DNA of 64,000 nt from an uncultured cyanobacterium. GTDB taxonomy: Bacteria; Cyanobacteriota; Cyanobacteriia; Cyanobacteriales; Cyanobacteriaceae. Where the stretch lies: positions 1 through 64,000 of the forward strand of contig CAVQBA010000002.1 in the NCBI GenBank assembly GCA_963710605.1, in the 5' to 3' direction. Positions 2,011 through 10,330 of the stretch are shown one piece after another; positions within the stretch are counted from its first letter, which is position 1, and each line of letters begins with the position of its first letter. The translations under genes were made by a program, and so were the position numbers. The notes beneath the pieces were generated by a model. It was given only the letters and a program-made list of their open reading frames with translations. It did no database searches and was not told the DNA's origin.

Positions 2011-3317
2011 TCAAAATAAGCTCCTAGCAAATATAGAAGCCGAAGAAGAATTCTTGGGTACAGTTCGATTTGACCCAAAAATTATCGGTTTAATTGCATC
2101 ACAGCTTCCTGCCGATGCTTTTTCCCTTTCTGCTCATCAAAAGATTTATGAATTTGCTCTAGAAATATATCGTCAAAACAAACCGACTGATTTAACTACT
2201 ATCAGCACTTGGTTACAAGACCATAATCTTTTAGATTCTGTTGGTGGTACTCTCAAGTTAACTCAATTATTAGATTCTACAGTAACATCTAAAACAGCTC
2301 AACATTATGTTGAGTTAGTAATGAATAAGTATCAACGCCGTTTATTGCGACAAACAGGACAAGAAATAGTTGAACTAGCCAGTGATACTTCTGCCAATTT
2401 AGAAACAGTCTTTGATAGTAGCGAACAGAAGTTGTTTGATATAACTACTAAGAAAACAAGGGGCAAGATTTGACCCTAAATCTATTGGTGATAGTTTAAT
2501 TGAAGTCTTGGGTAAAATTAGCGATGGAGCAAGGAATGCCTATTCTACTGGACTGAGTAATCTTGACCAACTGATTGGCGGTTTGATAAAACAAGATTTG
2601 ATTGTGGTTGCAGGAAGACCACCTATGGGGAAAAGTTGGGAACTTGGTTGTTACTTTGCTAATTATATTGCTACCAAAGAACACAAACCAGTAGTTTTCT
2701 TTAGTGCGGAGATGAGTCACGAACAGTTGACTAAAAGATTTCTTTCAATGCACACAGGTATTGATTCTCATCGACTGATACACAATCAAATTTATGAAGA
2801 AGAATATGAGCTTTTAGTATCTTCGTTAGAGCAGGTGTCACAACTACCAATAATTATTGATGATACTCCTGCAAGTCAATTAACTCCTGCCAAAATGCGT
2901 TCTGTATTACGTGGCATACAGTTGCAAAAGGGAGAAATAGGTTTAGTCGTATTAGATTATATCCAAAAATTAGGGGATAGAAGTGCAGGAAATAGATTTC
3001 AAGCTATTGGTAAATATTCAGGAGCGTGTAAAGACATCGCTAAAATGTTTGATGTTCCTTTTATCGTTTTAGCCCAAATAAACCGAGGAGTTGAAGGGCA
3101 AAGCAATAAACGCCCTTCTATGGGTGATATTAAAGATTCGGGGGATATAGAGCAGGATATGGACTTAGGTTTACTTCTTTACCGAGATGAATACTATAAC
3201 TCAAATACAAAAGATACAGGGGTTATGGAGATAATTGTGGGTAAGAATAGAAATGGTTCAACTGGTACTTGTAAAGTCAATTTTGACCCATCTGTAGGAA
3301 ACTTTAAAGACATCTGA
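1997..3317 (+). pseudogene. dnaB: DnaB-like replicative helicase, split by a 1-nt frameshift near 2455
   Basis: N-terminal domain ORF 1997-2473 and C-terminal RecA-fold ORF 2508-3317. Motifs: AGRPPMGKS (Walker A), FSAEM, VLDYIQ, LAQINR, DSGDIEQD, KNRNG. Confidence 0.85.
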
Positions 3318-3368: not shown

Positions 3369-3817
3369 ATGTGCTTTAAATCATTGTTGTGTAAATTACT
3401 AGTATCAGATAACTTAGGCTACTCTAGTCTGATAGCAACGAGCCGAAATGAAATAATTGATAGACCTAAATTTTTGATTGCTCTACAAAGCAAGTTGACA
3501 TCACTGCAACGAGAGTTAAAGAATAAGGACAAAGGCTCACAAAACTGGAAAAAAACCTGTCGTAAAATAGCTTTACTACATGAAAAAATTCACCGAAAAA
3601 GAAAGCAGTATCATTATGAATTAAGTCATTATTTGTGTGGGCAGGCGAAAATAATTTTTATTGAGGATATTGTACCTAAAGCATGGGCGAAAGGGATGTT
3701 ACGTAAACATTCTTTAGACTTCGCTTTTGGTGCGTTCATACAAATATTAACTCAAGTGGCGAAAAAAACAGACGTATATCTTCTCAAAGTTGATAAAGAT
3801 TTTACGTCACAAACCTG
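3369..3817 (+). pseudogene. tnpB: IS200/IS605-family TnpB, 5' exon (N-terminally truncated)
   Basis: Sequence LGYSSLIATS (remnant of RuvC-I), KGSQNWKK, RuvC-II IFIEDI, and ...VDKDFTSQT, which ends at the intron 5' boundary. Confidence 0.8.
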
Positions 3818-5090
3818 GTGCGATTCGTTCAGTCTAAATAAGTAACACTTAGGGACGACTGGCTTTTGTTGAGTAACCTTAATCGGTAGAGTTCGCACTT
3901 TAAATCCTCAACGAAGGACAATTTAATAATCTTGTTGGTGAGAGTAAGTAACCTAGAAAACTCAAACCCAACCCTCCAGACATAGGAGTGAAAACACTTT
4001 CCCTACGGTAGAGAATGGTCATCAATCCGTAAAGCGGGAATGAATGGGTAAAGGTTAACTCAACCTTGAGTCAATGCCACCTTAGCAGGTTTCTATGGAT
4101 AGGAATACAAAGGTTGTGTCAGAACCGTCTAGAGTGAAAACCAGTGAAATAAGGTTGATACACTGGGAGTACCAAAAGGTCAAAAACTAAGGGTATCAAA
4201 AAAGTCAGGTTTTAATTTGATATATGTCACCCGAAATAAGGCGGAGAATAACCATCCTAAAGAAACAAAACAAAGATTATTAGAAACGAAGTAACCCATT
4301 TATTACTCTCCTGAACTTCAGGAGCAGTCAACCAAGACGCAAAATCTGAATTTTTCAGGTAATTAATGGGAAAGATTGGATTAGAAGCAAACGCTCTATT
4401 GTAACGATAGAGATAAGCTGACGAATCCACGGTAATACGGAATATAAAGCTATGAGTAGCAATGAATAAGTTATGAACACGGAATTAAAACCGATGTATG
4501 AATGGAAAGACACCAATTGGCGTAAAGTCGAGAGATGTGCTTTTAAGTTGCAAAAAAGGATTTATAAAGCGTCACAGCGTGGGGATGTCAAGACAGTTCA
4601 CAGACTACAGAGGTTATTAACTAATAGTTGGTATGCAAAGCTAATATCGGTGCGTAGAGTTACTCAGGATAATCAAGGGAAGAAAACAGCAGGAGTGGAT
4701 GGAGTAAAATCTCTGACCCCAAAGAAACGTTTCCTCTTGACAAAAGAACTTAAACTGAGTACAAAGGTCAATCCAACCAGAAGAATCTGGATTCCAAAGA
4801 AAGGAAGGGATGAAAAAAGACCTTTGGGAATACCTACCATGTATGACCGAGCTTTGCAAGGGCTTGTAAAAATGGCAATTGAGCCAGAATGGGAAGCCCT
4901 ATTTGAACCTAATTCATACGGTTTCCGACCAGCTAGAAGTTGTCATGATGCTATAAGTGCTATATTCAGCCAAATTAGACTTAAATCAAAATATGTTTTG
5001 GATGCAGATATAGCAAAGTGCTTTGACAAAATAAATCACAAAAAACTACTAGATAAAGTCAATAGCTATCCAGTCTTAAGAAGACAGATA

Positions 5091-6212
5091 AGTAGCTCCA
5101 CTTAATTAAAAGTAAAACGTTCGACTTCAAATCCTGCTTGTTTTCCTCTATTATTCATTCCATTGATTATTTCTTCAACTAACTCACATTCATCTTCAAA
5201 TACTCTTGCCCTTAATTCATCCCTTTTTAAATGTAGCCATTGATCTTCCATCTTATTCATCTGTGGATGATAACTTGCCTGATAAAAGATTAGTAATCCT
5301 TGTTTCTCCCAGTAACTATAACGTTGTCTCACTTTCTGTGATTTATGTATTGAAGCATTATCATTGACTATGACTGTTAATTTTCCTGTTTCAAATAATC
5401 TCTTTGTTGCTTTTAAGGCTTGAGCATCTAAACATTCTATATACCTTGAGCTGTTCAAAGTCGTTGCTATTAGTCCGTATTCGGGGTTTTTATCTTGCTC
5501 CCATAATCCCATGATGTTTATTCTTCTTCCTTTTCTTCGTTTTTGATGTATTATTTTTTGTTCTCCTTTTTTTCCATAACTATACACCAACGGGCTTTCT
5601 GGATATACTCCAGACTCATCCAAATACTTTAAGGTGATTCAAACCTATTTGAGCCCATTTTTTAAGCATTTCTAAATCTTTCTTTTTTGCCTCTATTTCT
5701 TTGAGATTAATTATTTCAGGTGGTTTTCTTCTGATTCTTTTCCAACGCCAGTTTTTTTTTTAGTATTCTTCTAACTTGCTCAGAACCTAACTCTACTCCT
5801 GCTTCTTGCTTTAACTTTTGAGCCAATTGTTTTGCTGTATAACTTTTTTGTTCCCAAAGGCATTTTTCTATAGTTTGCCAATCTTGTGGAGTCCATTTTC
5901 TTTTTCTTCCAACTCTTTTTTCATCCCATAATCCAGCTAGTCCTTTTTCTTCCCATCTATGTATTGCTTGTCTAACCATCTTTGCTCCGCATTTTAAGTA
6001 ATCTTTGATTTCATTAACTGTTTTTCCCCTATTATTTAACCTCAGAGCAGTAGCTCTTTGTTTTGTTCTTTTTGGTACGCTATTTGCAAGAGATAACTCT
6101 TCAAGAGTTTTGTCTTCACTTTGTGATAGTTTTACTTGTAAAAAACTGGGCATTATTTCTTTTCCCATAATTATCCTGATTTTTTATTTTACTTTATTTA
6201 TGTGGAGCTACT
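5091..6212 (-). mobile_element. IS630-family insertion sequence
   Basis: Terminal inverted repeats AGTAGCTCCACTTAATTAAAAGTAAAA / TTTTACTTTATTTATGTGGAGCTACT, flanked by TA on both sides (5089-5090, 6213-6214). Confidence 0.9.
5102..6168 (-). CDS. IS630 transposase (HTH ORF 5716-6168 plus DDE ORF 5102-5623; A10 slippery site, one extra frameshift near 5640)
   Basis: DESG, NDNASIH and YHPQMNKMED (D-D-E) motifs. An A-run at 5752-5761 links the frames. An additional +1 base lies before ITLKYLDESG. Confidence 0.85.
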
Positions 6213-7218
6213 TAATAAGGTATGCAGATGACTTTGTAATCATGCACGAAGATATAAATGTGGTTATAAAATGTAAAGAAGTGATTAGCACATGGTTAAA
6301 AAATCTAGGATTAGAACTAAAACCGAGTAAAACAAAAATCGTACATACTCTGAATCAATATCAAGGACAAAAACCTGGATTCGATTTCTTAGGGTTCAAT
6401 ATACGTCAATTCAAAGCGGGAAAATATAAATCTGGAAAAAACACTAATGGAAAGATTTTGGGATTCTCTACCATAATCAGACCTTCAAAGGAAAGCCAGA
6501 AAGACCATTACAATAAAATAAAAGAGGTAATTAATAAGCATAAAGCTAAACCGCAAAATATACTTATTAGAAACCTGAACCCCATAATAAAAGGATGGTG
6601 TAACTATTTTTCCGTTGGATGCCCATCGAAAACATTCTACAGAATGGATTATACAATCTATTGGAAACTACAAAGATGGGCAAGAAGAAGACACCCAAAT
6701 AAGGGTAAGTATTGGATTTCCAAAAAATATTTTAATAGTATTGGAAACAGAAATTGGGTGTTCTCGACAAGAGATGATAAAGCGAGTTTTAAGTTGCTAG
6801 AATACGGTTCAATCAAGACCAGAAAGTACATTAAAGTAAAAGGTGAAGCATCACCATTTGATGGAAATCTTACCTACTGGAGTACAAGAATGGGAAAACA
6901 CCCCCAGATGCCTAAGCGAACAGCATCATTGTTAAAAAAAACAAAAAGGGATGTGTAACCACTGTGGATTGTACTTAAAAGATGGAGACATTATAGAGCT
7001 AGACCATATTATACCCAAATCCAAAGGAGGAAAGGATAGCTATGAAAACTGGCAGTTACTTCATCGACATTGCCATGATGTAAAAACTAAGGATGACGGA
7101 AGTCTAGAAAGAAATCCGATTATAATACCTGATAAATATTATTAGGAGAATGACATTCTTGTGTCGTACTAATGACAATAGCCGTTTTACTGAGGAGCGG
7201 TGTGACGTGAAAATGTCA

Positions 7219-9598
7219 GTGCGATTCGTTCTAGCAAAAGTCTAAAGCTAATAAGCTCAAGCGTAAGCTAGGCAAGGTTAATCATTCATTTGAACCTTGA
7301 CAACTCAATATCCATGTAGGTGAGAATCCTACCCTCTCATGCTAAGAGTGAAAGCATAACCCACATTGAATTGGCGTTTGGTAAGTCATACGATGAAGCT
7401 GGGTTAAATGGTGGTAACTGATAGCCAAAATTGGAATCCCACCTAGCACAGTAGTCATGGGTACGAAAGGAATCTTCGTAATAATCATCGTTATCTCGAA
7501 ACAGCTAAATGGCTGATAAGCTGTAACCAAAAGGTATTAGTCTAACGTACTGGCAATATTGACGGCTTGAACCAGATAGTATTACATAGACTCGGTGAAG
7601 AGAAGAACTCTAAAACTACATAGTATGGATATTGGGAACGAAATAACCCCAAAAAGACTCTCAACATTATTGTTGAGTAGTAACCAGCGTAAGTCTGATG
7701 GGGAAGGATTGTGTAAGAAGCGAAAGTCTAATTGTAATGATTAGAATATGCCCACGTACACACTTTGATTAGTAAAGAATAGTCCAAGTAGAATTAAAAG
7801 ACATGAACGTAAAGTATGTATGGAACAATTGGAACGAAATCGACTGGAAAGTCGTAGAAATTTCAGTGTTTAAAATTCAAAAACGAATATTCCGAGCAAG
7901 TCGTAGTGGTGATAAACAAGCAGTTCACAAATTACAAAGACTACTCACTAACTCTTTCTATAGCCGTTTATTAGCGGTCAGAAAGGTATCTCAAGATAAT
8001 CAAGGCAAGAAAACAGCAGGAGTTGATGGAATAAAACATCTAACCCCTAAACAGCGTCTTGAAATGGTCAATAATTTAAAAATAAGTGGTAAATCTAAAC
8101 CAACTCGCAGAGTGTGGATGCCAAAACCCAACGGAGAAAAAAGACCACTTGGAATACCGACTATATATGAAAGAGCAAAACAATGTCTAATTAAACTAGC
8201 TCTAGAACCTGAATGGGAGGCTACTTTTGAGAATAACAGCTACGGTTTTCGTCCAGCAATGTCAGCACACGACGCTATTGAGGCAATATTTAAAACCATT
8301 AAACAAAAGCCAAAATACGTACTAGATGCGGATATAGCAAAGTGCTTCGATAAAATAGACCATCAAAAACTACTTCAGAAAATGGAAACATATCCAAAAT
8401 TAAGAAGACAAATAAAAGCATGGCTAAAAAGCGGAGTAATAGACGGAAAATCTTGGTATCCAACAGATGAAGGCACACCACAAGGAGGAGTGGTGTCACC
8501 ATTATTAGCAAATATAGCTCTTCACGGTATGGAAGACGAAATCAAAAGATACGCTAGAACATTAAAAGGAAATAAATCTAAAAATGAATCGTCACTGAGT
8601 TTAATCAGATATGCTGACGATTTTGTTATCCTACATTCAAAAAAAGAAGTAATTCTTGAATGTAAACAAATAATAGAAAGATGGCTTCAAGACATCGGAT
8701 TGGAACTGAAACCGAGTAAAACAAAAATCACACACACCCTCAATCAAGTAGAAGGTAATGTGGGGTTTGATTTCTTGGGATTTAATATTAGACAATATCC
8801 CGTTGGAAAACATCATAGTAGTAAATCCACTCACTCAGAAATACTTGGATTTAAAACAATCATAAAGCCGTCAAAGGATAAAGTTAAACTACATACGCAA
8901 AAAATTGCAGAAGTAATTAAGAAACATAGAGCTAGTCAACAAATTGTCCTAATTAAAGAGTTAAATCCAATCATTAAAGGATGGTCGAATTATTACAGCA
9001 CAGTTTGTAGTAAGGATACATATTCTAAATGTGATTCTATACTATACTCACAATTAAAAAGATGGGCAGAGAGAAGACACCCAAATAAATCAAAACACTG
9101 GGTTGCTAAAAAATATTGGCACTCAAGGGGTTTAAGAAACTGGGTCTCTTCATGAGGAAGGGGAAATATATAGCGAATTAAAAACTCACTCACAGACCCC
9201 TATCAAAAGGCATATAAAAGTAAGGAAGAACTACAGCATTTTTAATGGTGAGATAGTTTACTCGAGTAGTAGATTAGGAAAGCATCCCGAAATGTCTGAA
9301 CTAATGGCAAAATTGCTAAAAAGACAAAAACAAAGGTGTAATCATTGTGAACTGTTACTCATGAGAAGAGAATTATTAGAAATTGACCATATAATCCCTG
9401 TATCAAAAGGAGGAAGATACAGTTTTCAAGAATTTACAAATTCTCCACAGACATTGCCACGACACTAAGACAACCACTGATGGAAGTCTCACTTGTATTC
9501 AAGACAAGAAACTAATTAGAGAGGAGCGAGGTGAGGGGAAACTTTCATGCCTCGTTTTGAAGACGAGTCAGAATGGTGACGTTCTGGCTTAGTTTAAC
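7219..9598 (+). mobile_element. Group II intron 2 (inner), inserted in domain V of intron 1
   Basis: Starts GTGCGATTCGTT at 7219. It has its own domain V (GAGCGAGGTGAGGGGAAACTTTCATGCCTCGTTT, ~9524-9557), domain VI, and a 3' end ..GTTTAAC at 9598. Confidence 0.92.
7803..9520 (+). pseudogene. Intron-encoded RT/maturase of intron 2 (RT and X intact to 9155; HNH region frameshifted)
   Basis: 450-aa ORF with GTPQGGVVSPLLAN and YADD. Out-of-frame remnants EIDHIIPVSKGG and RHCHDTK lie downstream. Confidence 0.9.
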
Positions 9599-9649
9599 TG
9601 CACCGTTTTGGAGAGCAGTAGGTGGGGTGACTCACTTACTGACTTTAAT

Positions 9650-9878
9650 CCCAAATTGTAATACAATTACTGGTAAAAAAGACTTGAAAGAGCGAGTTCA
9701 TAGTTGTTCTGAATGTGGTTTTACGGCAAATAGAGATGTAGCCGTATCGATGATTGTAGAGCAACGAGGTCTCCTAGCCGTTGGACAAACGGTGTCGCAG
9801 TCTGTGGAGGATAGTGGTATCGGGGTTGTTGAGAAATCGACAACTAGAACCACCCGAAAAAGCAGAAAATCTAAATAG
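9650..9878 (+). pseudogene. tnpB: IS605-family TnpB, 3' exon
   Basis: PNC...HSCSECGFTANRDVA (zinc finger and RuvC-III), in frame with the 5' exon after splicing. Confidence 0.85.
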
Positions 9879-10256: not shown

Positions 10257-10330
10257 CGGGCGTGAAGGGACTCGAACCCCCGACCTGCTGATTCGTAGTC
10301 AGCCGCTCTAATCCACTAAGCTACACACCC
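10257..10330 (-). tRNA. tRNA-Arg(ACG)
   Basis: GGGTGTGTAGCTTAGTGGATTAGAGCGGCTGACTACGAATCAGCAGGTCGGGGGTTCGAGTCCCTTCACGCCCG folds as a cloverleaf with anticodon ACG. CCA is not encoded. Confidence 0.95.

Follow-up and report, generated by a model that had tools for sequence, protein, structure and literature searches.

In twintrons generally, the inner intron must leave before the outer one can fold (PMC4424553), and in the first twintron to be described, in the psbF gene of the Euglena gracilis chloroplast, domain V of the outer group II intron houses a second such intron (PMC8393795). A stretch of 64,000 nucleotides from an uncultured cyanobacterium of the family Cyanobacteriaceae (assembly GCA_963710605.1, contig CAVQBA010000002.1, positions 1 to 64,000; referred to as the window) contains a twintron whose inner group II intron splits the bulge of domain V (dV) in an outer group II intron exactly between its two nucleotides; the outer intron in turn interrupts a TnpB gene. 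As in Euglena psbF, a group II intron is thus found within the dV of another, the comparison with Euglena being one of domains and not of the bulge. The Euglena introns are highly reduced and carry no open reading frames (ORFs), they interrupt an essential gene in an organelle, and their splicing has been shown experimentally, whereas those of the window are full-size bacterial retroelements with ORFs for reverse transcriptase (RT), maturase and HNH domains, their host gene belongs to a mobile element and the arrangement is known from sequence alone.

In Thermosynechococcus elongatus, TeI3 (F3) introns home into a conserved site of TeI4 (F1) introns; some introns sit in insertion sequences (IS), and one intron-encoded protein (IEP) is interrupted by an IS (PMC2882425). 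The present genome resembles that system in having inner copies that are alike (identical in T. elongatus) within outer copies that have diverged. The target in T. elongatus is in domain IV, between the first two ATG codons of the IEP where an insert is tolerated, whereas here it is the catalytic bulge of dV; mobility was measured there and five twintrons are recorded, against two junctions read from sequence here. The plastid mat1f of the red alga Porphyridium purpureum likewise has one inner intron that recurs at the same site of two different outer introns, a site which differs from the present one in lying in domain IV (PMC4476101). The prokaryotic twintron of Trichodesmium erythraeum has its inner intron in domain I and is spliced sequentially (PMC4649490). 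In Methanosarcina acetivorans, introns have homed repeatedly into other introns without coding exons, a situation comparable to a nest of introns at 10-31 kb of contig C5 of the present genome, but the inner introns are placed in intron ORFs and not in dV (PMC4424553). The preliminary description of the window, made from its sequence, could not say whether a dV target had been reported. In the literature searched, supplements excluded, the site is described only for Euglena psbF; no prokaryotic dV twintron was found there, the prokaryotic sites given being domain IV, domain I and intron ORFs. A bacterial pair of full-size retroelements joined in dV extends the known range of intron-in-intron targets.

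Rfam was run on each flank of the inner intron separately, with the searched stretch cut at the junctions. The upstream flank (7193-7218) yielded a 3'-truncated match to positions 1-26 of RF00029, the Rfam group II model of dV and domain VI (22.1 bits, E 0.01), and also matched positions 1-27 of RF04357, a plastid D5 model, with 28.9 bits (E 4.9e-5). The downstream flank (9599-9649) yielded a 5'-truncated match to positions 27-77 of RF00029, which is weak alone (14.1 bits, E 0.91). The two truncated matches abut exactly at consensus positions A26 and C27, which are the two bulge nucleotides, and their scores sum to 36.2 bits with the lower-helix pairs unscored, neither half alone reaching the gathering score. 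In the 5' half, the lower-helix strand (7195-7203) includes the AGC triad (7196-7198) and is followed by an upper helix of 5 bp (7204-7208 with 7213-7217) closed by a GAAA loop (7209-7212); the first bulge nucleotide, A7218, is unpaired and directly precedes the GTGCG with which the inner intron begins. In the 3' half, the second bulge nucleotide, T9599, is also unpaired and the lower-helix strand that follows (9600-9608) pairs with 7195-7203 at all nine positions. When joined in silico the halves fold into a canonical dV and domain VI (dVI), with the bulged A of dVI at 9642, 7 nt before the 3' end. The coordinates of the inner intron proposed in the preliminary description thus hold to the nucleotide, as does its observation that removal of the inner intron restores a complete dV. 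A lower helix pairing 9/9 one base past an arbitrary point was met at 3005 of 7,860,360 genome positions (3.8e-4). Folding energy was also tried as a control for chance and proved uninformative, the observed energy being reached by 340 of 20,000 random 10-mers joined to the left half and, in a further run, by 356 of 20,000 random right halves.

An empty-site homologue of the outer intron was identified on a contig labelled as a Symploca metagenome-assembled genome (MAG), where the dV of the intron at locus L065 continues uninterrupted past the insertion point. Identity of the outer intron to L065 is 74% over its first 655 nt and 76% over the 319 nt that lead up to the insertion point. In six more relatives (L061, L062, L069, L071, L081 and L082), too, dV and dVI are contiguous and align with both outer halves. 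The features of the locus are collected in Table 1.

Table 1. Coordinates of the twintron, its host gene and the inserted elements, numbered from the first nucleotide of the window.
Feature	Position	Strand	Basis or remarks
TnpB 5' exon fragment, N-terminally truncated (IS200/IS605 OrfB-type), ending ..FTSQT	3369-3817	+	Pfam, ORF
Outer group II intron, 5832 nt including insertions	3818-9649	+	starts GTGCGATTC, ends TTTAAT
Outer IEP, N-terminal part (RVT_N and first half of RVT_1)	4473-5088	+	Pfam; tblastn
Insertion sequence within outer IEP, labelled IS630-like by us	5089-6214	-	inverted repeats, DDE_3 and HTH_32 ORFs
Outer IEP, C-terminal part (end of RT, GIIM maturase, HNH)	6215-7145	+	Pfam; tblastn
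Outer dV, 5' half (AGC triad, upper hairpin, first bulge nucleotide)	7193-7218	+	RF00029, RF04357
Inner group II intron, 2380 nt, GTGCG start	7219-9598	+	sequence elements, Rfam, relatives
Inner exon-binding site 2 (EBS2), TCTCG	7494-7498	+	pairs with intron-binding site 2 (IBS2), 7206-7210, at 4/5
Inner exon-binding site 1 (EBS1), TGACGG	7560-7565	+	pairs with intron-binding site 1 (IBS1), 7213-7218, at 5/6
Inner IEP open frame, 450 aa (RVT_N, RVT_1, GIIM)	7803-9155	+	Pfam
Inner dV and dVI	9522-9598	+	RF00029 model 1-77, 50.6 bits (gathering score 40)
Outer dV, 3' half, and dVI	9599-9649	+	RF00029 model 27-77; fold; alignment of relatives
TnpB 3' exon, remaining zinc-finger (TNB) domain and C-terminus	9650-9878	+	Pfam Cas12f1-like_TNB 33-57

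A second copy of the inner intron, internally deleted, was found on contig C5 of the same genome (C5:29412-29713) and is 94-100% identical to the inner intron of the window: C5:29412-29621 is 94% identical to intron nt 1267-1476, and the last 101 nt of the intron recur at C5:29613-29713 with 100% identity. The last base of this copy abuts the 3' half of a dV that starts at the second bulge nucleotide and is followed by dVI. This dV and dVI flank is identical to that of an intron at C6:364792 at 42 of 54 positions and to that of the outer intron of the window at only 32 of 54; in their 5' ribozymes the two outer introns share 66% identity. The outer intron on C5 thus appears, from these identities, to differ from that of the window, with the junction at the same position of dV. 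The segment upstream of the copy, C5:28227-29411, is without a strong match in the rest of the genome and to our reading resembles a degenerate transposase.

The exon-binding sites of the inner intron were located by covariation in a set comprising the intron and 13 relatives, of which one lies on contig C5 and 12 belong to further genomes of the family; full-length copies of the relatives are about 70% identical. Two variable intron segments were found to covary with each intron's own 5' exon and were identified as EBS1 and EBS2. EBS1 pairs at a mean of 5.43 of 6 positions with its own exon and 2.55 of 6 with the exons of the other introns, and the corresponding means for EBS2 are 4.71 and 2.01 of 5; none of 176 cross pairs reached both an EBS1 pairing of at least 5 and an EBS2 pairing of at least 4. 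A 7-nt complement to the exon of the C5 relative at intron nt 474 had been considered as EBS1 and was ruled out, as covariation places EBS1 elsewhere. In the inner intron of the window both sites pair with the upper hairpin of the outer dV (Table 1). Genome positions matching the two sites as well as this (5/6 and 4/5) amount to 0.19%, or about 15,000. By our own post hoc reading, ideal targets of this EBS1 and EBS2 pair would together give a hairpin like that of dV, in which a stem of three base pairs carries a loop that opens with GA and is followed by the first bulge A, and the two mismatches in the window would be the two partners of the loop-closing pair. A fully compatible pattern, with wobble pairs allowed, has among its matches the dVs of L070, L104 and L020, the last of these in the present genome (C6:937362). 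Such full matches to the dVs of other introns fit an intron tuned to dV. A partial duplicate of the L020 dV lies at C6:946374-946432, at the contig end.

The 3' end of the inner intron is fixed independently of the flanking halves because its own dV and dVI score above the gathering score of RF00029. Its dV has the AGC triad, GNRA loop and two-nucleotide bulge of group II introns, and the RF00029 alignment places an unpaired UA in the 3' strand of dVI, 7 nt before the intron end. The intron is about 70% identical at the nucleotide level, over its full length, to introns in eight genomes of the same family, and its domain I aligns throughout with relatives that carry IEPs of 597-607 aa; its ribozyme parts look intact. 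The IEP, encoded in domain IV, is by comparison a pseudogene in which the RT and maturase domains have been kept and the DNA-binding and endonuclease part has been lost by two frameshifts, near 9144 and 9420. A 607-aa relative recovered it in three frames with tblastn, the DNA-binding/HNH part running out of frame to about 9589, and the frames are open at 597-607 aa in all six family relatives examined. The inner intron might still splice, as neither its ribozyme core nor the RT and maturase domains of its IEP look damaged; retrohoming by means of its own endonuclease is no longer possible. The frames of 597-607 aa in L125 (G018) and other family relatives extend through dV and dVI almost to the intron 3' end, so that coding sequence and catalytic RNA overlap in these relatives.

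The outer intron begins with GTGCGATTC, in agreement with the GUGYG requirement, its 3' end is set by the truncated Rfam match, and its domain I contains a 7-nt EBS1 candidate, CAGGTTT, complementary to the last 7 nt of TnpB exon 1. Its IEP is also a pseudogene, broken by an IS, a gap of about 67 aa and a frameshift. An intact relative aligned by tblastn spans aa 6-207 with the N-terminal part; at the IS site the tblastn coverage then skips some 67 RT residues (aa 208-274 in the relative), which the outer IEP lacks, and the C-terminal part has one frameshift near 6900-6940, where it passes between two tblastn reading frames. The IS is bounded by inverted repeats of 22 nt that are 91% complementary (5089-5110 and 6193-6214) and has minus-strand ORFs with DDE_3 and HTH_32 domains; the label IS630-like is our own and was given from the DDE_3/HTH combination alone. 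Excision of the IS and one TA in silico allows the RT frame to continue, with the 67 or so residues still absent.

The insertion of the outer intron into the TnpB zinc-finger domain is precise, since exon 1 matches positions 1-30 of the Cas12f1-like_TNB profile and exon 2 positions 33-57. Exon 1 also matches positions 23-112 of 120 of the Pfam OrfB_IS605 profile (E 3.8e-14), and the host gene is without its N-terminal part. The 5' exons of four relatives of the outer intron (L062, L065, L069 and L081) end in ..TSQ..-like codons that resemble the TnpB site of the window, which suggests that the outer-intron lineage homes into TnpB genes. The relatives are placed in such genes only by way of the ..TSQ.. 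motif, taken to indicate TnpB; the window TnpB exons gave no tblastn match at 1e-2 to the loci of these relatives.

The site-specific origin of the twintron was weighed against the distribution of comparable insertions and the state of the two copies, and a number of results count against it. A dV site was found in none of the 13 family relatives with a defined 5' flank, and no dV half was seen in the flanks of 80 loci related through the IEP (56-69% identity; the 5' end was not sought in 2, no dV was found for 12, and some of the 5'-end calls were poor). At the window site 9 of 11 positions pair, which is less than most relatives achieve; among these, EBS2 pairs 5/5 in 12 of 13 and EBS1 pairs 6/6 in 8 of 13. 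The dV of L020 (C6:937362-937439, minus strand), which matches both sites throughout when wobble is allowed, is unoccupied, as is a near-target at C5:11391. Only two copies of the inner intron exist and both are damaged; that on C5 is without its 5' 1266 nt, leaving the 3' junction alone to document the second event. The 5' half of the outer dV was looked for at the C5 copy and not found, and the C5 outer flank gave no Rfam match at E ≤ 5.

Wider searches gave a similar picture. A pattern for the 5' junction had 16 matches in 401 genomes of the phylum, compared with 6 for a reversed control. None of the 15 matches in the 400 other genomes was a split dV, and on inspection only that of the present genome (G000) had a paired upper helix; the pattern demands a GAAA loop, GTGCGA and the exact position, and would miss other variants. 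A lineage-specific pattern for the 3' junction had 34 matches in a metagenome collection, none of them a split dV and none with a dV upstream or an adjoining intron. A search for any insertion after the upper hairpin, in 5.05 Mb of loci and the genome, returned only the case in the window and three false positives. The twintron arrangement is not kept in any of 19 other genomes of the family, and a plasmid search returned only ordinary ltrA introns of about 65% identity. On these counts, homing into dV would not be the habit of a widespread specialist and appears confined to one genome among those searched. The suggestion of the preliminary description that the inner intron belongs to a hyperparasitic lineage specialised on other group II introns is accordingly not borne out: the check that it proposed, of homologue flanks for dV halves, found none, the phylum and metagenome matches contained no further case and the compatible dV at C6:937362 is empty. 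Its narrower suggestion of homing into dV fared better, being supported by the second junction on C5 and the EBS pairing (5/6 and 4/5), although no relative with dV flanks was found. There is fair evidence that dV is a true target within this one genome.

The inner intron could alternatively have inserted only once, in an ancestral outer intron; the composite would then have moved or been duplicated, with gene conversion keeping the inner copies similar as the outer parts drifted apart. The mobility of a composite twintron has been deemed possible (PMC2882425), a relationship between the two outer introns is visible in their 5' ribozymes (66% identity), and the genome holds many recombining intron copies, as in the nest at C5:10-31 kb. 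Conversion would, however, have to stop exactly at the intron boundary to leave inner copies that are 94-100% identical within outer introns that agree at 32 of 54 positions in dV and dVI and at 66% in their 5' parts; these identities suggest clearly younger inner copies, and the outer 3' end on C5 resembles a different intron, that at C6:364792 (42/54). A single insertion is therefore considered unlikely. In T. elongatus, near-identical inner copies in diverged outer introns have been read as independent insertions (PMC2882425). If two insertions took place, they need not have involved a preference for dV, as a chance ectopic retrotransposition might have required no more than the 9/11 match. 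The imperfect pairing (5/6 and 4/5), the roughly 15,000 positions satisfying the same thresholds, the failure of any relative to target dV and the better-matching dVs left empty are all in keeping with such an event. Against it stand two junctions at the identical position of dV in two different introns. With some 0.2% of positions eligible, it is very unlikely that the same nucleotide of a 34-nt motif would be struck twice, and the EBS pair, as read above, spells a dV hairpin. Chance insertion accordingly appears improbable.

A working regulatory device, in which ordered splicing would control the expression of TnpB or of the outer intron, is highly improbable. Sequential splicing of a twintron is documented in Trichodesmium (PMC4649490), both ribozyme cores look intact and the 450-aa ORF of the inner intron keeps its RT and maturase domains, but the host TnpB is without its N-terminal part, the outer IEP has been destroyed by the IS, the gap and the frameshift, the inner IEP has two frameshifts, and the arrangement is conserved in none of the 19 other family genomes. 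It is scarcely credible that the locus is an artefact of assembly in which a false join between repeated intron sequences imitates an insertion. At least 12 matches to dV/dVI do occur in the genome, along with numerous pieces of related introns; the joins nonetheless coincide to the base with canonical intron ends and with complementary halves of one dV, which a false join would not respect. There is also no long exact repeat at the junctions in the window, because the inner intron is only 64-70% identical to the other full-length copies in the genome.

The locus is probably the fossil of a group II twintron that arose by site-specific retrohoming. The outer intron, from a lineage that inserts at a conserved TnpB-type motif, would have been the earlier arrival in the TnpB gene. 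The inner intron, which belongs with it to one cyanobacterial IIB-like family, would then have reverse-spliced into the DNA encoding the outer dV, directed there by its EBS2 and EBS1 loops, which would pair with both strands and the loop of the upper hairpin; such pairing would place the insertion point after the first bulge nucleotide. Insertion is likely to have happened at least twice in this genome, into two diverged outer introns. Decay would have followed, with the frameshifts of the inner IEP, the IS, gap and frameshift of the outer IEP, and the truncation of TnpB.

In group II introns the catalytic metals are bound at the AGC triad and at the dV bulge. In the window, an insert of 2.4 kb separates the two bulge nucleotides and the two strands of the lower helix of this catalytic hairpin. 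With the metal-binding bulge split, the outer ribozyme is expected to stay inactive for as long as the inner intron is present, which would impose the order inner, then outer, and make outer splicing strictly dependent on inner splicing. That the inactivity would be complete we infer with some reserve, since the 5' half contains the entire upper hairpin and formation of the lower helix around the insert is conceivable. The forced order is largely moot here, as both IEPs and the host TnpB are degenerate. No part of a group II intron is more conserved or less free to change than domain V, which would make this domain a durable homing site for a second intron, and the outer intron with and without its insert would be a simple test system. 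The significance of the locus is limited by the decay of both copies, by a host that is a truncated transposon gene and by its occurrence in one genome among those searched.

A bolder reading, which we hold to be possible but doubtful, is that the inner intron is an intron of introns, whose EBS1 and EBS2 evolved to read both strands of the near-universal dV hairpin and whose insertion gates the catalysis of its host. Were this so, the inner intron could settle in every group II intron whose upper helix suits it, and insertion would switch off the catalytic centre of the host intron until the inner intron removed itself. It would amount to a hyperparasitic strategy aimed at the one sequence that group II introns cannot change freely, and to a natural ribozyme gated by another ribozyme.

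Other nested introns were observed in the course of the searches. Relatives of the inner intron are inserted in domain I (at about nt 95) of a copy of their own family at L032:957-5775, L117, L127 and L135 (G014), giving tandem or nested copies by self-invasion, which has been reported for a plant mitochondrial intron (PMC7049729). On a contig labelled as an Acaryochloridaceae MAG (L073:3592-3650), an intron starting GTGCGATTCGTTCTT lies within the dVI of another, 10 nt after dV, a twintron site different from the dV bulge. The nest on contig C5 of the present genome (C5:10000-31000, loci L002-L031) comprises at least six group II intron copies and pieces, with introns placed within the RT ORFs of others, for example after C5:24976, after C5:26488 and in the DADIAKCF motif near C5:26618.

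In the neighbourhood of the host gene, an ORF of 269 aa with a TTG start and a DnaB_C domain (2508-3317) lies directly upstream of the truncated TnpB fragment. A tRNA gene on the minus strand (10257-10330, Rfam 64.9 bits) follows about 380 nt downstream of the TnpB 3' exon, with an anticodon loop that we read as ACG (Arg).

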